A stretch of DNA of 52,574 bases, filler included, from an uncultured virus (IMG/VR IMGVR_UViG_2049941000_000887) (taxonomy: Duplodnaviria > Heunggongvirae > Uroviricota > Caudoviricetes). It is 7 parts of one record of this genome, joined end to end, with 100 filler letters (N's around TTAATTAATTAA, not from the genome) between each part and the next. Parts side by side here need not be neighbours in the genome. Positions count along the whole stretch, not along the records: positions 3,931 to 28,174 come from IMGVR_UViG_2049941000_000887; 6 more parts are not named here. One strand, given 5' to 3'. Below the pieces are notes generated by a model, which saw nothing but the letters and a program-made list of their open reading frames with translations, ran no database searches and had not been told where the DNA came from. The translations under genes and the position numbers were made by a program. Positions 3,831-52,339 of this stretch are shown one piece after another. Within the stretch, counting starts at the first letter, position 1. Each line of letters begins with the position of its first letter.

Positions 3831-3930
3831 NNNNNNNNNNNNNNNNNNNNNNNNNNNNNNNNNNNNNNNNNNNNTTAATTAATTAANNNNNNNNNNNNNN
3901 NNNNNNNNNNNNNNNNNNNNNNNNNNNNNN

Positions 3931-17848: not shown

Positions 17849-18721
17849 TAGCGGCGTCAGCCGCGCTGTTGGTGGACGCAAACCGTCAATAAGCGAACCG
17901 TCGGGACCCCCTTCATCGGGGGATTCCGGGTTAAAATGAATCTCCGAGCTGAACAACTCTGTGTCAGACTTGCCGATATTGTAGACGATCACAATCCTGT
18001 CCTCATAGGAGAATACCTTGTAGACAAGACCTTCGATGATGTCCTTGTTGTATTCCTCGCTCGGCTCGTCTGTCTCGCGGACGAAGCGGGAAAGCAGGTA
18101 TAATATTTCGTCCTTCGGCATGACCGTGTTTTTGACGCTGGTGATCTCAATTTCATATTCGAGTTTGTCGCGCTGCTGCTCCAGCTCTTCCAGTCTGGCT
18201 TTTGTGGAACGGGTCACTATCCCCTGCTCCATCGCGGAAAGCAATCCATTGATCGCCTTCTCCGTCGCCTTGAGCTGCTGACGGAGTGTGTCGGCTTCAT
18301 CGGGGCGGCTGTCGGCTGCGCTGATCGCGGCGCAATGTTCGGCTATCAGCTCCATCATATCCGGCTGGAGAATGTTCCGCACCGTCTCATCGACCACCAG
18401 ATTCTCTATCCAGTCCTTGCGGAGCGTCTTTTGCGCGCAGTCCTTTTCAACGGGTTTGTAATAGTAGTACCGGCTGCCGTTCCTGCTCGTGCCGGAATGA
18501 CCGACCATGCCGATATCTGTGTCGCCGCAGTAGAGCTTCCCTGTCAACAGATATTCTTCCTTTGCCCGCTTCTTCTGCGGGTGCTTCCTGTTCCCTTCCA
18601 GCTTGCGCTGCACCGCTTCAAATAATTCCTTATCCACGATAGCCGGAACGCCTCCTTCCACACAGATGTCCTTGCAGATATAATATCCGATGTATTTCTT
18701 GTTACGAAGAATCGTGGTGAG
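17837..18721 (-). CDS. Large serine recombinase, C-terminal part
   Basis: ILRNKKYIG, PAIVDKELFEAVQ, YLLTGKLYCG, coiled coil, then GSLIDGLRPP end. Confidence 0.85.
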   Translation of the reverse strand, partial: LTTILRNKKYIGYYICKDICVEGGVPAIVDKELFEAVQRKLEGNRKHPQKKRAKEEYLLTGKLYCGDTDIGMVGHSGTSRNGSRYYYYKPVEKDCAQKTLRKDWIENLVVDETVRNILQPDMMELIAEHCAAISAADSRPDEADTLRQQLKATEKAINGLLSAMEQGIVTRSTKARLEELEQQRDKLEYEIEITSVKNTVMPKDEILYLLSRFVRETDEPSEEYNKDIIEGLVYKVFSYEDRIVIVYNIGKSDTELFSSEIHFNPESPDEGGPDGSLIDGLRPPTARLTPLSEE

Positions 18722-18731
18722 NNNNNNNNNN

Positions 18732-19251
18732 CTAGTAGTAGTAGTACCGGCTGCCGTTCCTGCTTGTGCCGGAATGTCCGACCATGCCGATATTTGTGTC
18801 ACCGCAGTAGAGCTTTCCCGTCAGCAGGTATTCTTCCTTTGCGCGTTTCTTCTGCGGGTGCTTCCGGTTTCCTTCCAGCTTGCGCTGCACCGCTTCAAAC
18901 AATTCCTTATCCACGATCGCCGGAACGCCTCCCTCTATGCTGATGTCTTTGCAGATATAATATCCGATGTATTTCTTGTTACGAAGAATCGTGGTGAGAC
19001 TGTTTTTGTTGTAGGCATTGCCTCGGGCGGTTCTGATGCCGACGGAATTCAGGTAGTCGCATATCTCTTTGCAGGTATGCCCTTCCGCGTACATCTCAAA
19101 GATTTTCTTTACCACCGGCGCGGTCTATGTATTCCCTGACCACGGTCAGACCGTGGGCTTTGGCGTAGGCGTAGCACTCGCGGAGCTGCCCCTCAATGGA
19201 CTGCTCGTTCTGGCGCTCGGAACTGTATCGGGCGTAAATGACGGTCTTCAT
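18732..19251 (-). pseudogene. Serine recombinase allele with internal 386-bp deletion and frameshift
   Basis: MKTVIYARYSSERQNEQSIEGQ...EYIDRA jumps without a gap into the PVVKKIFEMY region in another frame (compare 2307-2701). Confidence 0.75.
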
Positions 19252-19421: not shown

Positions 19422-20162
19422 TCAACTGAACTGTGTAAAAAACGTGAGCAGTTCCTTCCGCTCGGCTTCCGGAATGTCGGGATAAATCAGCGCGAAGGAT
19501 TTTTCGATCAGATGCTCCTTGGTCAGACTGTCCGGCGCATTCCGCAGGGAATGGCGGATTTCCGCGAGGGCGCGGCTCATCTCGGCGAGCTTCGGCCAGT
19601 CGGCGATATTGAATTGGTTGTAGAAGAGTCGTTCCAGCGGCTTTGCGTTCTTTGTCAGGTCAATGTGGCGGATATTGAATCTGATAAAGGGCGTGGCGCA
19701 GATTTCGGTGTTTTCATCGTAGGAATAGAAGCAGTATTCCTCCCCGTTGGTGAGGATGATCAGGTGCGCGTTTTTGGCCGCGTTGAAGTAGCCGGCAATC
19801 TGCCTGACGAAATTTTTGTTCCGGTCGATGTGCTTGAAGCGGATGCGTTTGGCTTCGACGTACACCCAGCCCTTGCCCTGTTTGGAGAAGGCAAAGTCGA
19901 CGTGCTTGTTGTAGCTGCCGGGAACCTTATGTTCCCAGCTCCAGAAGGGATCGTCGGTTTTCCAGCCGAACGCCCTGAAGAACGGCAGCACAAACTGTCC
20001 GCAGGTGTTGGCCTCGTTGATGTCCTTCTGCTTCAAAGGAAAATGCCCCATGTCATTCACGATTTTTTCAATGTCAATCTGCGCGTATTCCAGCGTGTAC
20101 TCATGGCGCGTCTTCTCCGGGGAAGCTTCGGGAAGCACCCGCGTTTTCTTCTTACCGAACAT
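19422..20162 (-). CDS. HsdR_N-like PD-(D/E)xK nuclease-domain protein
   Basis: NEANT...VLPFF.AFGW...VDFAF...VEAKR...ILTNG..Y.FY. Confidence 0.75.
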   Translation of the reverse strand: MFGKKKTRVLPEASPEKTRHEYTLEYAQIDIEKIVNDMGHFPLKQKDINEANTCGQFVLPFFRAFGWKTDDPFWSWEHKVPGSYNKHVDFAFSKQGKGWVYVEAKRIRFKHIDRNKNFVRQIAGYFNAAKNAHLIILTNGEEYCFYSYDENTEICATPFIRFNIRHIDLTKNAKPLERLFYNQFNIADWPKLAEMSRALAEIRHSLRNAPDSLTKEHLIEKSFALIYPDIPEAERKELLTFFTQFS

Positions 20163-20456: not shown

Positions 20457-20816
20457 TTATTTGTTGTCGCTGAGGCTCATGATGTAATCCTTCAGAGCCT
20501 GCCGCGCCGCCTTGCTCATCTTTATGTATTCCTGAATAAGTTTGCGGTCGATCGGGTCAAGGTCATAAACCCGGCACAACTCGTCGAGTATTGTCTTGGG
20601 CAATTCGGAAAACATTTCCCCGTCGCCGTAAACCAGCCAGTCATAATTGACATTGAACTCCCGGCAGATGGATTTGATCATTTGCTCGGTCAGATTCCTA
20701 TTGCCTTTTTCAATATTTGAAATAGCCACTTTTGTGACTCCAACGCGGTCGCCAAATTTTTCAAGCGTCAGATCCATCGCCATCCGGAGCTGCTTTACTC
20801 TTTCGCCTTGTGTCAT
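20457..20816 (-). CDS. XRE-HTH prophage repressor, immunity type 1
   Basis: GERVKQLR...FGDRVGVTKVAISNIEKG...ICREFNVNYDWL..G.GEMF. Confidence 0.9.
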   Translation of the reverse strand: MTQGERVKQLRMAMDLTLEKFGDRVGVTKVAISNIEKGNRNLTEQMIKSICREFNVNYDWLVYGDGEMFSELPKTILDELCRVYDLDPIDRKLIQEYIKMSKAARQALKDYIMSLSDNK

Positions 20817-23031: not shown

Positions 23032-23253
23032 ATGGACAAGAACACACGCATTTTATTATTGATTCATCTCATGAGCAGCGAAAGCTTCGCGGCCATGCCG
23101 CAGGCCGAAAAGGCGATCCTGCTGACGGAATTGCTCTATGGCAAGGACAAGCCTGAGCCGGCGGCGGCTCCCAAGCAGCCGAAGCACCCCGGCGGCAGAC
23201 CAAAAAAGGACGCGACGGCAGCCGACGAGAAGGCGGAGGGGGATGAAGGATGA
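23032..23253 (+). CDS. Phage hypothetical protein
   Basis: GGAGG RBS; paralog of 2862..3069. Confidence 0.6.
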   Translation: MDKNTRILLLIHLMSSESFAAMPQAEKAILLTELLYGKDKPEPAAAPKQPKHPGGRPKKDATAADEKAEGDEG

Positions 23254-23453
23254 GAAGATTAAAGCCATGCCCGTTCTGCGGCCGGCAACCGATACTGATG
23301 GACGGGGCCGTTTCCAATATTCGGATGGTGCATTGTATGAATTGCGGCGCGATTGTATCATTCAGAGGCTGCGGGACGAGCGAATTGGAAACCATCGAGC
23401 GATGGAACACAAGAAGCAAGGACGACGAGAAGTCGGAGGGGGAAGCGGAATGA
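23250..23453 (+). CDS. Lar-like Zn-finger protein
   Basis: LKPCPFCG...VHCMNCG...IERWNTR; absent from the paralogous 2862-3436 array. Confidence 0.75.
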   Translation: MRRLKPCPFCGRQPILMDGAVSNIRMVHCMNCGAIVSFRGCGTSELETIERWNTRSKDDEKSEGEAE

Positions 23454-23661: not shown

Positions 23662-23874
23662 ATGAGCGGCACATCGGAGAGAATCATGAAAGAATTGCAC
23701 CGTGAAGCGGACTACGCGCTCAGGAGCCACAGCCGCGATCTGGTGTATCAGACCCACGGCAAGGCGCTGATGGCGTGCGATCTGGGCGCGATTTCATATG
23801 AGCAGTTCAAGGAGCTTAACCAGAAACTGGTGGTGGACGGGCTGAACAATTACGCCAAGTCCAGACTGAAATAA
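23662..23874 (+). CDS. Phage hypothetical protein
   Basis: Paralog of 3227..3436. Confidence 0.6.
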   Translation: MSGTSERIMKELHREADYALRSHSRDLVYQTHGKALMACDLGAISYEQFKELNQKLVVDGLNNYAKSRLK

Positions 23875-24025
23875 TTCCAAAAGAAAAAGCCGCCTCGGAA
23901 GCTGGCACTTCACGGGGCGGCAAAGGAATANNNNNNNNNNGCAGAACTTCGCGTCGTCATCATTGGCTGTGCGGCAATTGGGACATAGCTTCATAAACAT
24001 ACCTCCAAAAATTTCACGCCGGATA

Positions 24026-24145
24026 TTGACAAATTTCACTAGGCGTGGTAAAATATTTTCGGAGCGGTTGTCGCTCTATAGCACCACGTGATCTCTCTGC
24101 CGCCGATGTGGTAGTTGAACGGCAAAGAGGTCACAATCTTTTCTT
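24026..24145 (+). ncRNA. Candidate two-hairpin small RNA with promoter, copy 1
   Basis: TTGACA-17-TAAAAT; GGAGC/GCTCT hairpin; GTGATCTCT..CCG/CGG..AGAGGTCAC stem; T-run. Confidence 0.6.
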
Positions 24146-24334
24146 ATGCACAAAATCATACCTGATTACGCTTGTTTCTTATCCTCGGCAGGCTCGTCCG
24201 TGTATTTCGGCATACTCGCTATATCATCCGAGTAGGTTANNNNNNNNNNACAGAACTTTGCATCGTCCTCATTCTGTGTGCGGCAATTGGGACATAGCTT
24301 CATAAACATACCTCCAAAAATTTCACGCCATATA

Positions 24335-24455
24335 TTGACAAATTTCACTAGGCGTGGTAGAATATTTTCGGAGCTGCTGAGGCTCTATTGCACCACGTGA
24401 TCTCTTGGCCGCCGATGTGGCAGTTGAACGGCTGAGGGGTCACTTTCTTTTTTTA
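24335..24455 (+). ncRNA. Candidate small RNA, copy 2
   Basis: Same architecture; changes fall in loops or preserve pairing. Confidence 0.6.
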
Positions 24456-24474
24456 TGCACAAAATCGTATTCGA

Positions 24475-24855
24475 TTACGCTTGCTTTTTGGCTTCATGCG
24501 GCTCGTCCGTGTATTTCGGCATACTCGCTATATCGTCCGAATAGGTCACCAGCGTGTCCTGCCCCAGCTCGTTGAGCTGGTTATAATTATGGATTAACCT
24601 TTGCTTCTTGAAATCGCTCTCGCCTTGCGCGGGAGCTTTTTTTGTTTTGGGCGGTGAAGGGTCATTCGTACAACCAAGCAAATAATCTACTGAAGTATTG
24701 CATTGTATTGCAATCTTGACAAGAATTTCAGACTTTGGATCGTGTGTACCGGTTTCATATCCATTAAATGTGGTTGGCTTTATACCCAATAATTCCGCTA
24801 ATTCTTTTTGAGATAATCCTACTCGTTCTCGTGCTTCTTTTATGTAGAACTTCAT
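24475..24855 (-). CDS. XRE-HTH prophage repressor, immunity type 2
   Basis: IKEARERVGLSQKELAELLGI...YETG..DP...SVDYLLG; C-terminal YNQLNELGQ helix. Confidence 0.9.
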   Translation of the reverse strand: MKFYIKEARERVGLSQKELAELLGIKPTTFNGYETGTHDPKSEILVKIAIQCNTSVDYLLGCTNDPSPPKTKKAPAQGESDFKKQRLIHNYNQLNELGQDTLVTYSDDIASMPKYTDEPHEAKKQA

Positions 24856-25019
24856 GTGAAATCACCTCTCACAATGATAATACTACAAAAATTTCTAAAA
24901 GTCAATAAAAAAAATTCTAATTTCTCGAATTTTCTTTCTAAAAGCTCTTGATAAATTCGATTTTCTAGTATATCATTAACTTGTAAATCCGAGTTTCTCG
25001 AATTAAAGGAGGTGAACAT

Positions 25020-25238
25020 ATGCTTGCAAATATCGAAGCAGAGCGTGGCAGATTTCAGCTTACCAAAGAAGAGATTTCAAAAAGTTTGGGGATTACTTCA
25101 AAAACCTATTTAGCGTATATAAAGGGTAAGCCTATTCCTTCCAATGTTTTGATCAAAATGTCCCGGATGTTTGGTCGCTCTACCGACTACCTTCTGGGAT
25201 TGACCACGGAGCCGGAGGGCGAGGACAAGCCGGCGTAA
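25020..25238 (+). CDS. Cro-like HTH protein, type 2
   Basis: NIEAERGR..LTKEEISKSLGITSKTY...STDYLLG; divergent from the repressor. Confidence 0.85.
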   Translation: MLANIEAERGRFQLTKEEISKSLGITSKTYLAYIKGKPIPSNVLIKMSRMFGRSTDYLLGLTTEPEGEDKPA

Positions 25239-25260
25239 GCAAGCGATTCAGTGAGAGGGG

Positions 25261-25488
25261 GTGAAACACATGGACGAAGACAAGCAGAAAATCTGTGATC
25301 TGCTGCTGCCCGCGATACAGGCGACCAGCGCGGGAAGACGGATTCTCGCGCTGGAATATACCAGCGACGAAAGCAGACACCGCGAAACGGTGACCATCCG
25401 CTTTCAGGACATTCCCCAACAAAAGGCGAACGTCACAGGCGACAGCGGCGCCGCGATGATCTATGACATTCTGTGTAAGGTTTTTTAA
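25261..25488 (+). CDS. Phage hypothetical protein
   Basis: Paralog of 21416..21643. Confidence 0.7.
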   Translation: MKHMDEDKQKICDLLLPAIQATSAGRRILALEYTSDESRHRETVTIRFQDIPQQKANVTGDSGAAMIYDILCKVF

Positions 25489-25516
25489 TCTCAAACGAAA
25501 CAAGGAGGTAAACAGT

Positions 25517-25753
25517 ATGTATATCGAAGACGGTTTCAAAACGCCGGACAAGGTGGAAATCCTTTACATCTCGCCAAAGCAGGCGGCGGCTCGCTACGGC
25601 ATCAGCGCCGACATGGTGCGGCTGATGATTCACATGGAGGGCTTTCCGGACATCATGAAAGTCGGACGCAAAATCTGTATTCCGGTCAAGGCGTTTGACG
25701 AATTCATGGAGAAGAATTATCTCATCAGTCAGCCCCGGCATGTTTCCGGATAA
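25517..25753 (+). CDS. Excisionase-like (HTH_17/MerR-type) DNA-binding protein
   Basis: ISPKQAAARYGIS...FP..KVGRKICIP...FDEF. Confidence 0.75.
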   Translation: MYIEDGFKTPDKVEILYISPKQAAARYGISADMVRLMIHMEGFPDIMKVGRKICIPVKAFDEFMEKNYLISQPRHVSG

Positions 25754-25834
25754 GGACGAGGAGGTGACGGCATGATGAAAATCATCGGAGGACTGGGCGC
25801 GATCCTGCTGCTGATGATGGCGGCNNNNNNNNNN

Positions 25835-26924
25835 CTTTACTATCATTTAATGACCAAGCCTCAGAAACTTCAACCTCAACAGAATTCTTTTTATCATTTA
25901 ATAAATATGCCGTATAAACAGTCAGTGTTTTACCAGGTTTAATATCTCTGGTATCAGAATTATCATCATATTTTTTATCAAAAGAATAGGCTTTGTCGAG
26001 TTCTACACCATCTTGAAATGCTGTATATGACATTGCCAAGCTGAAATGAGCGGCTTTGCTGCTGTTGTTTGTAAACTTATACTCGACTATCAGACAATTT
26101 CTTTTTTTATAATCTTTACCGACTCTCGCAGAAACAATTTCCACATAATAGTCGCCCAATTTACCTTCATTAGTATTTATTGTGGATTCTTCTTCACTGG
26201 AAGAGTCATCGTCATCGTCATCGATTATTGCTGTATCCGTTTTTGCTGAATCTTTTTCAAGAGTCTTGAACAGCCCCATGACGTCCTCATATTCATTCCA
26301 CTCGCCATTGAAATATCCGTTGGCATAGTAAACGGTTGGTGCGTTTTTAACACTTGAATAGCCTATATAATAGCCGAAGACGGTAATTTTCGTGTTCTCT
26401 TTTAATTTGGAGTATATGTAGTTATCCAAAAACGTTACACACCAAATATNNNNNNNNNNNNNNNNNNNNNTGTCAACTGTTGTAAGCTCCTTGACCTTGC
26501 CGGAAAAATACACCTTTGTGTTTCCTAAACCGTTTTCACTTGCGGGAGAATTGTATTTGTCAAATTCAGCCGCCACATAGCTGTTTGCCTGAGCGTAATT
26601 CATTATTTCTTCCTGTGCCGACGGTCCGCTGGTACCAATTACTATCAGCAAAACGATGGTGAGTATAATCAGAACTCCATTTACCGAAGCGGAGATAATG
26701 CTGATTGGGTCTTTGATCCATACCTTTATTTTTTCCAGAATGACAGGCTGCTTCTTTACTGGCGGTACCGACATAGGAACCGGATTGGCAGGTACAACAG
26801 GAATCGGCGTAACCTGCGTGGGAACAACGCTTTTTGTTTCTTCCACAGGGAGACTGGTACCACAGTTCTTACAGAATTTTACATCATCCTGATTTTCTGT
26901 GCGGCAATTGGGACATAGCTTCAT
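25835..26924 (-). CDS. Zn-ribbon + single TM + extracellular (DUF5067/DUF4352-like) protein; superinfection-exclusion-like position
   Basis: CPNC...KFCKNCG; hydrophobic helix; YKFTNNS...AFQDGVEL...IKPGKT; other 5' copies at 23941-23994 and 24250-24303. Confidence 0.7.
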
Positions 26925-26955
26925 AAAAATACCTCCAAAAATTTCACGCCGGATA

Positions 26956-27052
26956 TTGACTTTTTTCACTCGGCGTGGTAGAATATTTTCGGAGCTGCCG
27001 AAGCTCTATTGCACCACGTGATCTCTTGGCCGCCGATGTGGCAGTTGAACGG
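26956..27052 (+). ncRNA. Candidate small RNA, copy 3 (cut by gap)
   Basis: TTGACT-17-TAGAAT; same hairpins. Confidence 0.55.
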
Positions 27053-27062
27053 NNNNNNNNNN

Positions 27063-27287
27063 GTTCCCAGCGGCGGGGGCTTTTTTTATCGGTTGTTCCT
27101 CTAAGTCATCAAGCGTATATCCAAGATAATGAACAATGGCGCGTACACTTGAAAGATAAGGCTCTTTTGTTTGACCTGAAAATAATTTATCAATAGTTGA
27201 CTTTGGTATTCCGGTAGCTTCAGATATTTCTTTTGAAGTCTTGCCGGATTGTTTTTTCATTTCTTTGAGCTTTTTTAACCAATCCAT
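27063..27287 (-). CDS. XRE-HTH prophage repressor, immunity type 3 (3'-truncated)
   Basis: KLKEMKK...EISEATGIPKSTIDKLFSGQTKEP...LGYTLDDL. Confidence 0.85.
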
Positions 27288-28174: not shown

Positions 28175-28512
28175 NNNNNNNNNNNNNNNNNNNNNNNNNN
28201 NNNNNNNNNNNNNNNNNNTTAATTAATTAANNNNNNNNNNNNNNNNNNNNNNNNNNNNNNNNNNNNNNNNNNNNTCAGTTCGCGGTGGCGTTACGCGTGG
28301 AAAATGACCCGCGTACAGTGGGAACACCGCGACAGGTACAGCCGAAAATGCAACCTCGACTGCTTTAACTGTAAGGCAAAACACTGCTGACGTGTTTTAA
28401 ACGCTTCATGACGTGTTTTAAAAAATAAAGCGCGTTTTTTAAGTGATTTCAATTATTTTTTATTGGTTTCAATTATTGGATTGTAATTTAAAAAACAGTT
28501 TTTTTTAAATCA

Positions 28513-42279: not shown

Positions 42280-42492
42280 ATGGCTTTACAGTACGGTTTT
42301 TTTGATTCCGTCCTTAACAACGGTATGATGAATTTATTCAATGAGATTCCTCAGCTCCACGCACAGCTTGAAACCAAAGGCGAATGGCGCAAATATTACG
42401 GTTCCCGTCTCCGCGGTCATCGACAGGGCAATCCGGCAATTTCTGGGAAAGCAGGAAAACAAAAATTGACTTTTTTCTCAAAACTATATTGA
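42280..42492 (+). pseudogene. Truncated baseplate/tail gene fused to unrelated sequence
   Basis: Typical MA..YGFFDS start, only ~15 codons before unrelated sequence; no tail fibre or lysis genes follow. Confidence 0.55.
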
Positions 42493-42602
42493 CAAACTTC
42501 ACATTGGTGTGATAAAATATCACCAGAGCCAATACATACGCTCCAAGCAAAATCCCCCTGCCGACTCACACGCACCACCGTGAATCTGGCAGGGGGATTT
42601 TG
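42489..42602 (+). ncRNA. Diverged member of the two-hairpin small RNA unit
   Basis: Promoter region aligns with 24024-24066; GAGC..GCTC hairpin; AAAATCCCCCTGCC..GGCAGGGGGATTTT terminator. Confidence 0.45.
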
Positions 42603-43119
42603 TTTATGATTTTTCTGACGATAATCAAAATATACACCGGCGCAAAGTTATGTAAATTCTATGTAAAAAGCTGTTTTTTGAGGGTAAAAACAAAACCGCG
42701 CAAAGCCGGCACTTGCTACAAATGCCCGATTTACGCGTTTTGTCGGTGGNNNNNNNNNNCTCCAACGTGGTGTAAAGCAGATTTCCCGAAGGAGACTGCG
42801 CGGACAGTTCGATGGNNNNNNNNNNNNNNNNNNNNNNNNNNNNNNNNNNNNNNNNNNNNTTAATTAATTAANNNNNNNNNNNNNNNNNNNNNNNNNNNNN
42901 NNNNNNNNNNNNNNNCTGATTGGTTGGGTATTAAATTGTTGTTTCTGGTGTTAGGGAAAGGCATAAAAATGCCCGTTACGGGAGTTCACAGTAAAAAATA
43001 CGCCGAAAATGCCCAAAGGCATCTACGGTAAGCCTGCTTCGTTTTTCGCCCTCTAAAACCACGAAAAGCCCCTACAATTGGGGCTTTTCTGGGGTGGCAT
43101 CTTTTTTGTTCACCTATTC

Positions 43120-43165
43120 TGGTCGAGGTGACAGGACTTGAACCTGCGGCATCCTGGTCCCAAAC
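43120..43165 (-). tRNA. 3' half of tRNA-Pro(TGG): att core of the tyrosine-integrase prophage (not a complete tRNA)
   Basis: Minus strand GTTTGGGACCAGGATGCCGCAGGTTCAAGTCCTGTCACCTCGACCA; similarity ends at the anticodon loop. Confidence 0.85.
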
Positions 43166-43301
43166 TGAACAGTAAGCAAATGATATTTATTGGAAATGGC
43201 GTATTTCAGGCGTTTTTTAGCATTCAGTCAACGATAAATCCGATAAAAACGAGAGCGAAGTTATGTAAAAAATATGTAAATCCGCGCTTGGATTTTGCGG
43301 A

Positions 43302-44441
43302 TTACATACCCGCCGCTGTCCAATTGGTGACGGCGTTTTCGCTTTGCTTCTCCTGCTCTTCCCGAAGGTGCGTATAAATCGCAAGCGTTGTTTCGATATT
43401 GTCATGTCCCATATACTTCTGGGCGGTGAGCATATCCACACCCATCTCAAAAAGGTTGGTGCAGTAGGTGTGCCGGAGTTGATGCTCCACCACATGACCG
43501 AATGCTCCGTCGGATATGCGGTTACAGATATTCTCGAAGCTCTCCCAGCCCCTTTTGATGGACGAATAGGAAACATACCCGTTGTCGGAGCCTTCAAACA
43601 GCAGCAGTCCCTTATCTTTGAGCGTCTGCTCTATCACTTCCTGAAGTACCGGCATGAGCGGCTTCGGTATCGGAACCTGTCGCACGCCCGCCTTTGTCTT
43701 GGGCGGTCCCAGCACCGCTTTCCGTCCTGTCTGTCCGGCTACCTCCGGATAGGTGATCTGTTTATTGACCGTGATTTTATTGTCCTTCACGTCGTTCACG
43801 GTCAGAGCGAGAGCCTCTCCCCTACGCAGTCCGCAGTAGTACATCAGCAGCACGATAGGGCCGATACGGGCGGTCTTGGCCGCTTCCAGCGCGATGCGCT
43901 GCTGCTCCTTGGTCAGAGCATTACGGGTCACCGGCTCCGCGCCGCTGACGGTCAGGTTTGCCGCCGGATTGCGCGGGATCACATCATCCGTCACCGCCTG
44001 ATTGAAAACCGCAAAGAGCAGGCTTCTGATTTCCTTGACCGTCTTCTGACTGTAGGGCTTTTCTTTCGGTCCGTAGGTGGAGCCGGCTACGTCGTTGAGC
44101 AGCTTTTGGAGATGATGCCGCTTGACGTCAATCATCCGCATGGAGCCGATCGCCGGGCGGATGTGCTTCCGGATCATGCCGAGGTAGCTCGACTGGGTGT
44201 TTTTCCGCAGCGGCGTCACATAGGTTTCCACATACATATCCAGCCACTTGCCGACGAGAATCCGGTTATCGGAGACAAAGCCCTGCTCCTTCTGGGCGTG
44301 GAACTGCTGCACCTTTGCGTCCAGCTCCGCCACCGTCTTGCCGTAAAGGGTCTTATACTTTATCCTGCCGGCTTCGGAATATTCTCCTGTGGCAAGCTGG
44401 GTGTAATACAGCCCGTTATCGCGTTTTTTGTATTTAGCCAT
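43302..44441 (-). CDS. int: Tyrosine integrase
   Basis: GLRRGEALAL, PKT..G.R, HQLRHTY, MGH.....T..IY.H. Confidence 0.95.
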   Translation of the reverse strand: MAKYKKRDNGLYYTQLATGEYSEAGRIKYKTLYGKTVAELDAKVQQFHAQKEQGFVSDNRILVGKWLDMYVETYVTPLRKNTQSSYLGMIRKHIRPAIGSMRMIDVKRHHLQKLLNDVAGSTYGPKEKPYSQKTVKEIRSLLFAVFNQAVTDDVIPRNPAANLTVSGAEPVTRNALTKEQQRIALEAAKTARIGPIVLLMYYCGLRRGEALALTVNDVKDNKITVNKQITYPEVAGQTGRKAVLGPPKTKAGVRQVPIPKPLMPVLQEVIEQTLKDKGLLLFEGSDNGYVSYSSIKRGWESFENICNRISDGAFGHVVEHQLRHTYCTNLFEMGVDMLTAQKYMGHDNIETTLAIYTHLREEQEKQSENAVTNWTAAGM

Positions 44442-51302: not shown

Positions 51303-51463
51303 NNNNNNNNNNGGTCAGAAGACCAAAGGTGAAAAGGTTCGTATGAACTGGCCTGCGGTACCCNNNNNNNNNNNNNNNNNNNNNNNNNNNNNNNNNNNNN
51401 NNNNNNNTTAATTAATTAANNNNNNNNNNNNNNNNNNNNNNNNNNNNNNNNNNNNNNNNNNNN

Positions 51464-52339
51464 AGCGCCGGCGAAAGGTTGCTGGGATAGAACTGCTGGG
51501 CAGTTAATCGAAAAGCTTTCCGCATGCGGCGGCGATATTGGCGCAGTTCTCGGTGATTACAATCCCGAATACGGGGCATGGATACGCTTCAATCCTCTGG
51601 ACGGTCAGGGCGTCGGCAATGCCAATGTGACCGACTTCCGCTACGCGCTGGTGGAATCCGACTATGTGAATCTGGAGAAGCAGAACGCCATTATCCGGGA
51701 GCTGGAGCTGCCTGTGGCGGCGCTGGTTTACAGCGGCGGCAAGAGCCTTCACGCTATCGTGAGAATAGAAGCCGCCGANNNNNNNNNNATCGGAAACGCC
51801 AATGTTACCGATTTCCGCTTTGCACTGGTAGAATCCGACAATGTGGATCTGGAGAAGCAGAACGCCATTATCCGGGAGCTGGAGTTGCCTGTTGCGGCAC
51901 TGGTCTACAGCGGCGGCAAGAGCCTTCACGCTATCGTGAGAATAGAAGCCGCCGACGCGAAGCAATACCGTGAACGCGTCGAATATCTCTACAAGGTCTG
52001 CGACAAGAACGGCTTTGAGGTAGACCGCAACAACAAGAATCCTTCCCGCCTGAGCCGTATGCCGGGTGTGATACGGGGCGGCAAAAAACAGTACCTTCTG
52101 GATACCAACATCGGCAAGAAGTCATGGAGTGACTGGGTAGAGTGGATAGAATCNNNNNNNNNNAAAACAGTACCTTCTGGACACCAACATCGGCAAGAAG
52201 TCATGGAGTGACTGGGTAGAGTGGATAGAATCNNNNNNNNNNGAAGCAATATCTTCTTGACACCAACATCGGCAAAAAGTCATGGAGCGACTGGGTAGAG
52301 TGGATAGAATCGGTCAATGACGATCTGCCCGACCCGGAN
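51464..52339 (+). CDS. Primase/helicase central fragments (several collapsed variants)
   Basis: ALVESD, YSGGKSLHA, NPSRLSRMPG (AEP-like motifs), repeated with SNPs across gaps. Confidence 0.8.

Follow-up and report, generated by a model that had tools for sequence, protein, structure and literature searches.

A putative family of structured RNA genes opposite the lysogeny genes of prophages from one uncultured rumen Clostridia genus

The repressor region of an uncultured Caudoviricetes virus carries a repeated unit, here called type A, that opposes the lysogeny genes. The pairing and covariation of seven copies and a preference of the fold for one strand indicate that the unit is a real structured RNA gene, encoded on the + strand. 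As far as sequence comparison can tell, it represents a new RNA family of a known general kind that is so far confined to one uncultured genus. Tentatively, and with a little more doubt than conviction, we read it as a cis-antisense RNA against the leader of a repressor-to-cargo read-through transcript, which would set the expression of the cargo gene relative to that of the repressor.

Copies, fold and covariation of the type A unit

The window, that is the whole stretch of 52,574 nucleotides that was analysed, contains a 182-nt direct repeat in three copies: 23941-24122 (90%), 24250-24431 (the reference) and 26871-27052 (92%). The units were confirmed to start where the first-pass annotation of this DNA had placed them, at 24026, 24335 and 26956, and each begins with a + strand promoter with a TG extension. 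The promoters of copy 1 (24026-24054; TTGACA, 17 nt, TG-n-TAAAAT) and copy 2 (24335-24363; TTGACA, 17 nt, TG-n-TAGAAT) each have 11/12 matches and the promoter of copy 3 (26956-26984; TTGACT, 17 nt, TAGAAT) has 10/12; the region has 14 promoter-like sites in all, compared with 7.2 +/- 2.8 in shuffled sequences.

The fold begins about seven bases past the -10 box. The predicted RNA is ~85 nt long and consists of a 6-bp 5' hairpin with a 5-nt loop, a 10-nt unpaired linker, a 15-bp terminator hairpin with a 17-nt loop and a U-rich tail. For copy 1, the RNA (24061-24145, + strand) scores 167.9 bits with a covariance model built from five sequences; with the start placed from the -10 box, the 5' hairpin is at 24061-24077 and is followed by the linker, the terminator hairpin (24088-24134, with the 17-nt loop) and the U tail. 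The RNA of copy 2 (24370-24456, + strand; 162.7 bits) is contiguous with a complete repressor gene. Copy 3 (26956-27052, + strand; 92.8 bits) comprises the promoter and the 5' two thirds of the RNA and ends at an N10 gap at 27053. The 5' hairpin had at first been drawn with a 7-nt loop: its pairing stands, but it is better read as six base pairs closing a 5-nt loop, with G-C, U-G or U-A as the sixth pair.

The number of copies needs to be read together with the assembly. The window is a pseudomolecule with 61 N runs, in which separate scaffolds are strung end to end: the six scaffold linkers, at 2022, 2762, 3831, 28175, 42816 and 51364, consist of 44 N, TTAATTAATTAA (twelve bases) and another 44 N, and the remaining N runs are mostly N10 gaps within scaffolds. 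Many near-identical tandem duplicates are found across N10 gaps of the window, for example 23929-24228 and 24238-24537, with 87% identity at a spacing of 309. Copy 1 is inside a 299-bp piece that is bounded by two N10 gaps and is the near-duplicate of the piece with copy 2, and it may therefore be a strain variant set in tandem rather than a second copy of one genome. Of the original description of three copies in one prophage, the three repeats are real, but the number per genome is partly an assembly effect, with near-duplicates across gaps. A word-content search found the stretch in bovine gut metagenomes of 12 studies.

Pairing was examined in an alignment of seven copies, the three of the window and four from genomes of one uncultured rumen Clostridia genus. 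Standard pairs occupy 97.8% of the 135 cells, compared with 42-49% when the partners are slid by 1-3 columns. Four pairs have changes on both sides, namely 41/47 (UG, GC, UA), 68/104 (CG, UA), 69/103 (CG, UA, UG) and 73/99 (UA, GU), and the covariation score of the alignment was reached by none of 500 shuffles. The compensatory stem changes that had been noticed between the window copies are thus real, and their number grows as sequences are added.

The + strand of copy 1 folds with -32.8 kcal/mol (3 of 200 shuffles are as stable) and its minus strand with -32.4 kcal/mol (0 of 200). The + strand of copy 2 folds with about -33.8 kcal/mol (7 of 200) and has eight G-U pairs; its antisense fold, at -19.7 (57 of 200) to -16.6 kcal/mol, is weak because several stem pairs are G-U. 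The sense fold is more stable than the antisense fold in five of the six full copies, each with 4-8 G-U pairs, the exception being the copy of genome G001 (-26.4 kcal/mol sense, -28.1 kcal/mol antisense). Promoter, fold and covariation thus support the initial proposal of a structured RNA of ~85 nt that is encoded on the + strand and has a promoter of its own, and the gene also has its own terminator.

These data also bear on the question of whether the unit is a DNA site (for an operator, for recombination or for packaging) rather than an RNA gene. Both hairpins are inverted repeats, a further inverted repeat, CACGCC/GGCGTG, flanks the -35 box, and the promoter spacer is conserved across the types of unit described below, all of which a DNA site could have. 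Yet, as DNA the repeats are imperfect because of the G-U pairs (antisense strand of copy 2, -16.6 kcal/mol; sense strand, -33.7 kcal/mol), the arms covary around an unchanged loop, and promoter and U tail are where an RNA gene should have them. We consider a DNA site very improbable.

Some further candidates were rejected. A pseudoknot between CCAC of the linker and GUGG of the loop was dropped by inspection, as it has only 4-5 bp and is broken in one copy. A coding frame opposite the unit (31 aa, GTG start, no ribosome site) has residue changes wherever the stems covary. An element that is solely an intrinsic terminator is ruled out by the promoter and the covarying 5' hairpin.

Expression is only hinted at. 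One metatranscriptome run has four contigs over 24301-24519, including variants like copy 1 and like the copy of genome G002, and a second run has two contigs over 24301-24371; cover in other RNA runs is over repressor or cro regions. The contigs span the cargo start, the unit and the 3' end of the repressor gene at a depth of 2-3, are strandless and possibly reflect DNA carry-over; uncovered parts of the 1575-bp stretch in RNA runs are uninformative. What can be stated is that the unit sequence is present in RNA libraries of two studies, nothing more.

The repressor junction and a predicted leader of the cargo gene

All seven type A copies are located at the same junction, on the opposite strand between the stop codon of an XRE/HTH_3 cI-like repressor gene and the ribosome site of the next gene (the cargo), and the tie between unit and junction, initially seen in the window only, is thereby extended to 7/7 copies. 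The repressors are of four HTH types with a common C-terminus of ~50 residues. The cargo genes are of three types, encoding a Zn-ribbon membrane protein with DUF5067, a smaller Zn-ribbon membrane protein or a SHOCT/DUF4428 protein, and metatranscriptome contigs have a different gene start behind the same cargo ribosome site. This interval, from repressor to integrase, is a hot spot of defence and exclusion functions in Firmicute prophages from the gut and rumen.

Within the window, both copy 1 and copy 2 are next to a repressor stop, as previously described, but only the repressor of copy 2 is complete: this cI-like XRE repressor gene (HTH_3, with the conserved C-terminal ~50 aa) is at 24475-24855 on the minus strand and its stop is ~20 nt beyond the U tail of the RNA, while copy 1 has a C-terminal repressor fragment (24166-24239, minus strand) on a piece that is cut off by an N10 gap. 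Of a second repressor type (MDWLKK...; HTH_3), the N-terminal part is present at 27066-27287 on the minus strand; its C-terminus and the 3' part of copy 3 are in the gap, and repressors of this type carry unit A in two other genomes. The cargo gene downstream of copy 3 encodes the Zn-ribbon membrane protein with DUF5067 (25782-26924, minus strand). The copies were correctly described as upstream of the Zn-ribbon gene, but beside copies 1 and 2 this gene is incomplete, with only the first ~18 codons present. The covariance model found no unit between another repressor of the window (20457-20816) and its downstream gene.

One natural variant has the same repressor and the same cargo but lacks unit A through a clean 143-bp indel, and this deletion variant retains just the 3' halves of the two leader helices described below. 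In one prophage (L071), the order is integrase, unit B, cargo, unit A and repressor, with both units pointing against the genes.

With its own promoter and terminator opposite the lysogeny genes in all seven type A copies, the RNA has the orientation of a cis-antisense RNA. It overlaps no reading frame or ribosome site: the 3' end is before the repressor stop and the 5' start is ~55 nt from the Shine-Dalgarno sequence of the cargo gene. No minus-strand promoter-like or terminator-like site was predicted in 24026-24160 or 24335-24470, and a transcript from the repressor promoter would therefore have to read through the unit to reach the cargo gene.

In this read-through mRNA, a leader hairpin is predicted at 24002-24064 (minus strand, copy 1; the equivalents are 24311-24373 and 26933-26994). 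Its helix in copy 1 is predicted to consist of CUCCGAAAAU paired with AUUUUUGGAG, the Shine-Dalgarno sequence of the cargo gene, and in all variants CUCC(G/A)AAAAU is the predicted partner of AUUUUUGGAG. A predicted inner helix, CACGCC/GGCGUG, spans the promoter of the small RNA and encloses its -35 box. CUCC of the leader is the complement of the first bases of the small RNA (5' GGAG), and no other part of the RNA is so placed.

The leader pairing, with the Shine-Dalgarno sequence in a 10-bp helix and an inner helix of 7 bp, is possible in all seven copies: 95.7% of the cells of the seven sequences are paired, compared with 38-52% when slid. The changes of the leader are mostly one-sided, and four C-to-U changes opposite a G keep the pairs on the mRNA strand alone; covariation of the leader is not significant, with the score reached by 157 of 500 shuffles. 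The predicted probability of the Shine-Dalgarno sequence being unpaired is 0.02-0.20 in the free leader and 0.12-0.58 with the RNA-complementary stretch blocked, and even then it is still mostly paired in win1, win2 and G001 (from 0.20 to 0.21 in win2). Judged by reading of the sequences, type D units have the same leader, with A-U in the inner helix where type A has G-C.

The cis-antisense reading would combine these features as follows. A strong constitutive promoter would drive the ~85-nt RNA against the lysogeny operon (repressor, cargo gene, integrase), and transcription would halt at the intrinsic terminator of the RNA, just before the repressor stop codon. In its leader between the two cistrons, the read-through operon mRNA would contain a perfect complement of the small RNA, and immediately downstream the leader would fold with the Shine-Dalgarno sequence of the cargo (UUUUUGGAG) paired with CUCC(G/A)AAAA, the complement of the first bases of the small RNA and of the stretch just upstream of its start. 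Since the leader complement of the RNA is the predicted partner of the Shine-Dalgarno sequence, the small RNA could set the amount of cargo protein relative to the repressor, possibly by pairing with the leader, by cleavage of the duplex or by collision of the converging polymerases. Operon read-through, pairing in vivo and an effect on the cargo gene are all what we infer from the arrangement. It had been suggested that the RNA controls either cI or the downstream gene: control of the downstream gene is plausible via the predicted leader pairing, but control of cI by overlap is not, as the RNA ends before the repressor stop.

A converging promoter and a hairpin may also act as a transcriptional insulator that cuts read-through into cargo or integrase, with the RNA as a mere by-product. 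Near-consensus promoters indeed face the operon in every case of types A, B and D, the L071 prophage has units at both the repressor/cargo and the cargo/integrase gap, and the hairpin of type C is bordered by A and U tracts at either end and is equally stable on the two strands. However, the compensatory changes and + strand G-U pairs show that the RNA fold is under selection, with the 5' hairpin included, for which an insulator has no need, and type A has no minus-strand U tract after the hairpin. An insulator is, in our view, improbable.

Type I antitoxin RNAs of Firmicute prophages (for example SR4/bsrG) are convergent small RNAs with a 5' hairpin and a terminator that are encoded in accessory regions of the prophages, and an antitoxin role was among the functions first considered for the unit. 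The unit does converge with a neighbouring gene in a region that is rich in addiction and defence genes, and ParE pairs are found beside type B. Unlike SR4/bsrG, however, the unit has no small toxin frame: the ORF lists at the unit and its neighbours contain no short hydrophobic frame on or beside it, and the neighbours are the repressor, which is the converging gene, and proteins of 174-395 aa. The unit also lacks the build of a tandem repeat array, and in the ParE pairs the antitoxin partner is a protein. An RNA antitoxin, be it of type I or type III, is thus very hard to credit.

Relatives, sister types and action in trans

Searches with Rfam 15 resulted in no match at the gathering threshold over the whole window, in four chance-level matches in 23850-27150 at E up to 10 (E 2.8-5.3; 16-22 bits compared with thresholds of 37-80) and in one tRNA, but nothing else, over eleven loci with types A-D. 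The claim of novelty has therefore passed the cmscan check, with no known family matched. None of types A, B and C had a blastn match among 50,697 records of cultured phages. Four DNA patterns and one repressor-alignment scan identified no true match in IMG/VR (the 40 loci of one search have scores of 20 or less, compared with 85-88 for true copies), and the five loci found in JGI metagenome contigs were all chance matches, with scores of 18-23. A scan with one genome per species returned five loci, two of which are true copies, both from uncultured rumen or Clostridia genome bins.

In one uncultured rumen Clostridia genus, four of the 20 genomes scanned with the covariance model have strong copies (147-162 bits). 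Among 151 genomes of the family of G001, the model identified G001 alone; among 151 genomes of the family of G002, it identified G002 and four matches of 26-28 bits that contain little beyond the promoter. The promoter pattern was absent from 401 genomes of the order, but this pattern also misses some true variants, for example the promoter of G001.

Weaker covariance matches (28-49 bits) occur in the genus and at position 42489 of the window. The latter, already listed as a diverged unit, was recovered by the model with 33.8 bits (E 7e-5). All units were sorted into four types: A, with the seven copies studied, B, with six near-identical units, C, with three units including the one at 42489, and D, with two. 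The types have a common promoter, which consists of TTGACAAATTTCAC, about five bases and GTGATATAAT, and a common build of 78-87 nt: a (A/G)GAGC...GCUC hairpin at the RNA start, an unpaired linker and a terminator hairpin that is long and has a large loop. In the window, type C is represented by the unit at 42489-42605 (+ strand; model match to 42626). This unit is on a different scaffold from copies 1-3, so that its initial placement near the other end of the prophage does not follow from the window, and it has the same type of promoter, the 5' hairpin and the long terminator hairpin flanked by A and U tracts.

Type D is found at the same repressor/cargo junction as type A. Type B units are farther along the lysogeny module, where they separate cargo from integrase, are flanked by two ParE pairs or are adjacent to an Abi_alpha gene. 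Of the type C units, two come after the gene for a holin or a CHAP lysin, near a tRNA or integrase gene; the type C unit of the window follows a tail-protein gene and a 70-codon frame, and ARAGORN identified no tRNA at 42900-43400.

This distribution is relevant to the main rival of the cis-antisense reading, a trans-acting accessory or 'moron' RNA, which we consider unlikely: the linker or the 17-nt loop would pair with an RNA of the host or of a competing phage, or bind a protein, and the position in the operon would merely reflect where accessory genes are tolerated. The unit is a self-contained cassette of promoter, RNA and terminator that is present or absent by the 143-bp indel and is dispensable in one relative. 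Its loop varies less (3 of 17 columns) than its stems (11 of 30), a constraint that a pure cis-antisense RNA does not need. Types B and C have the same promoter and architecture in other contexts and without the leader, which argues for a function of the RNA itself, and types B, C and D occupy classic accessory slots, between lysogeny genes and after lysis genes, with ParE toxins, an Abi_alpha gene, an HSDR_N-like gene, holin and lysin as neighbours.

The searches for a target of such an RNA, however, found none. Complements of the loop with up to 3 mismatches in the window are the units themselves and one site with 3 mismatches. A duplex scan of start regions in four phage contigs found no recurrent plausible target, and in a scan for shared sites in the four contigs and the window, only the antisense of the units themselves and the conserved terminator (-17.7 kcal/mol) were recurrent. 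Loop matches in the host are at control level, with the near-matches in host genes inside ordinary coding sequence. Moreover, all seven type A copies are at one junction.

Known phage RNAs and CRISPR repeats

To our knowledge, very little is known about small RNAs in the immunity regions of prophages from gut and rumen Firmicutes. By analogy of logic, the nearest known RNAs appear to be OOP of phage lambda and sar and sas of P22, which are textbook regulators in immunity regions of Gram-negative phages. OOP and the cII reading frame overlap at the 3' end of the latter, sas is within sieB and determines which of two products this gene yields, and sar covers the ribosome site of ant. According to a review, OOP is a short immunity-region RNA with its own promoter that pairs with a polycistronic message, with cleavage by RNase III, sas (sieB) and sar (ant) are antisense RNAs of prophages that adjust the translation of a gene beside the immunity genes, be it an accessory, exclusion or antirepressor gene, and STnc6030 of the Salmonella phage BTP1 is a prophage antisense RNA to the tailspike gene that has an accessory role in the lysogen, the exclusion of related phages (PMC12197685).

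Like OOP, the type A RNA has its own promoter, is directed towards a regulatory gene and has an intrinsic terminator at its 3' end; in contrast to OOP, it stops ~20 nt before the repressor stop and covers intercistronic sequence only, and the two have no relation by sequence or Rfam. It differs from sas and sar in being located upstream of the ribosome site of the cargo gene, with an effect that would act through the leader fold, and there is no homology. A structural-gene target like that of STnc6030 was not found for type A in the loop and duplex scans. The unit also differs from OOP, sar and sas in that it appears to be a portable cassette that is combined with various repressors and cargo genes.

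Such a portable RNA cassette with varied repressors and cargo would give a simple, testable rule for cargo expression in lysogens, and types A-D, as a small set of related RNAs with one promoter type, are suited to knock-outs, reporter fusions and compensatory mutations. If the unit is just another antisense RNA, it would be an ordinary addition, limited to one uncultured genus.

Prophage RNAs that mimic CRISPR repeats or whole guide RNAs have been described as Racr RNA anti-CRISPRs (PMC10651486) and viral sgRNAs (bioRxiv 10.64898/2026.06.01.729453). The unit resembles such RNAs in its length of ~80-90 nt, its own promoter, a stem with a 5-nt loop and a terminator. It differs in that type A is unlike the host repeats and the tracrRNA-like region and has no guide, and in that type C is weakly antisense to the host repeat rather than a mimic. 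We give almost no credence to a CRISPR-directed RNA, be it a Racr-like repeat mimic, a viral sgRNA-like RNA or a complement of host repeats.

Of the genomes of the host genus, three of the five tested have Cas1 and two of 20 have Cas9. Two genomes have arrays with a 33-nt repeat and there is a second repeat type of 30 nt; we take the array of the host genus to be type I-C-like. Types A, B and D pair with the two array repeats, in either orientation, no better than chance would predict (27-197 of 200 shuffles are as good), and the loop pattern of type A occurs in five host genomes with control-level counts and in no arrays. Local alignment and a model both failed to detect any likeness to the tracrRNA-like region or the Cas9 locus, and the predicted start is at the 5' hairpin, with no space for a guide upstream of it. 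Type A was consequently rejected both as a Racr repeat mimic, being no better than shuffles against the two repeat types of the host genus (only two arrays were seen), and as an RNA derived from a viral sgRNA or tracrRNA, with no match in Cas9 loci and no guide 5' of the stem.

Type C is where complementarity was found. The type C unit of genome G157 is predicted to pair with the sense repeat with -39.8 kcal/mol, with 0-1 of 200-300 shuffled repeats as good, and the unit at 42489 with about -32 kcal/mol (0-5 of 200-300 shuffles). However, the type C unit of G167, the genome that holds the array, is the weakest, with about -25.5 kcal/mol and 7-21 of 200-300 shuffles as good. When compared with GC-matched natural 33-mers, the fraction of equally good duplexes is about 0.01-0.03 for G157, 0.02 for the 42489 unit and 0.08 for G167. 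We regard this predicted complementarity of type C to the host repeat as a lead rather than a finding.

A broader idea, which we consider quite improbable, is that the units are genus-wide prophage 'RNA morons' of at least four types: types A and D would be riboregulators that bring their own leader and put any cargo behind it under RNA control, and type C would be an RNA anti-CRISPR that pairs with host repeats, instead of mimicking them, and thereby blocks crRNA maturation. The units also have a GCACCAC(C) motif in common, presumably a candidate for complementarity to 16S rRNA.

Presence and absence of the type A unit, and a shared C-terminal region of the repressors

Two loci from related genomes of the host genus, an uncultured genus of rumen Clostridia, differ by the clean presence or absence of a 143-bp segment carrying the type A unit, the predicted RNA gene between the repressor stop and the ribosome site of the cargo gene (L066 420-680 versus L062 1380-1760, minus strand). 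The flanking repressor and cargo gene are the same at both loci. Short repeats border the insert: ATAAT[CT], and CGTGAAATTT, which is found both within and outside it.

The C-terminal ~50 residues of the repressors are almost invariant (ESDFKK...YSDD.ASMPKYT...KQA) among proteins with unrelated HTH domains (window 24478-24620, minus strand; L043 2800-2954; L041 3067-3210, minus strand); this region may serve in oligomerisation or inactivation, as a domain swapped in modular fashion.

Sister units and the host CRISPR repeat

Type B, a sister unit with the same promoter and build, consists of six almost identical RNA genes of ~82 nt each from three genomes, one of which contributes three of the six (L059 1501-1629; L060 848-981; L061 963-1093, minus strand; L066 1501-1630, minus strand; L069 1501-1631; L071 1501-1629). 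Their surroundings are prophage accessory genes: ParE pairs, Abi_alpha, an HSDR_N-like gene and an integrase. The type B terminator loop contains GGCACCACCUGAG. A GCACCAC(C)-like unpaired motif, which may match 16S rRNA, recurs in the type A linker and in the type B and type C terminator loops, and in type D it is reduced to a shorter form, ACCACC/ACACC. The analysis yielded no function for this motif.

The type C units (window 42489-42605; L070 1448-1566 and L068 1501-1641, both minus strand) show complementarity to the sense strand of a 33-nt CRISPR repeat present in two host-genus genomes, with 17 bp paired and two bulges in one unit. Their duplexes with the repeat, predicted at -32 to -40 kcal/mol, are better than those of nearly all shuffled repeats and exceed ~97-99% of GC-matched natural 33-mers; the type C unit of the very genome that bears the array forms a weaker duplex with the repeat.

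Make-up of the window and neighbouring genes

The window is a pseudomolecule of contigs strung together by linkers of 44 N, TTAATTAATTAA and 44 N (2022-2121, 2762-2861, 3831-3930, 28175-28274, 42816-42915 and 51364-51463), with many N10 scaffold gaps besides. Near-duplicate pieces face each other across the gaps, for example 18458-18721 and 18735-18998 (92%) or a 79-nt sequence in three copies at 52085-52321. Copy numbers and synteny taken from the window are unreliable.

In a second lysogeny module (19425-20162 and 20457-20816, both minus strand), the repressor is of a different type and the cargo gene is HSDR_N-like; the two are separated by a 294-nt spacer in which the covariance model built from type A copies found no unit. 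The early genes include a small Lar-like restriction-alleviation protein (23250-23450, plus strand; Pfam Lar_restr_allev, E 5e-14). In 42900-43400, ARAGORN detected no complete tRNA. The two sides of a scaffold linker carry similar copies of a motif, AAGTTATGTAAA..TATGTAAA (42630-42670 and 43255-43290), next to a tyrosine integrase gene (43302-44438, minus strand); the pair may be attachment-site or arm-type sites.
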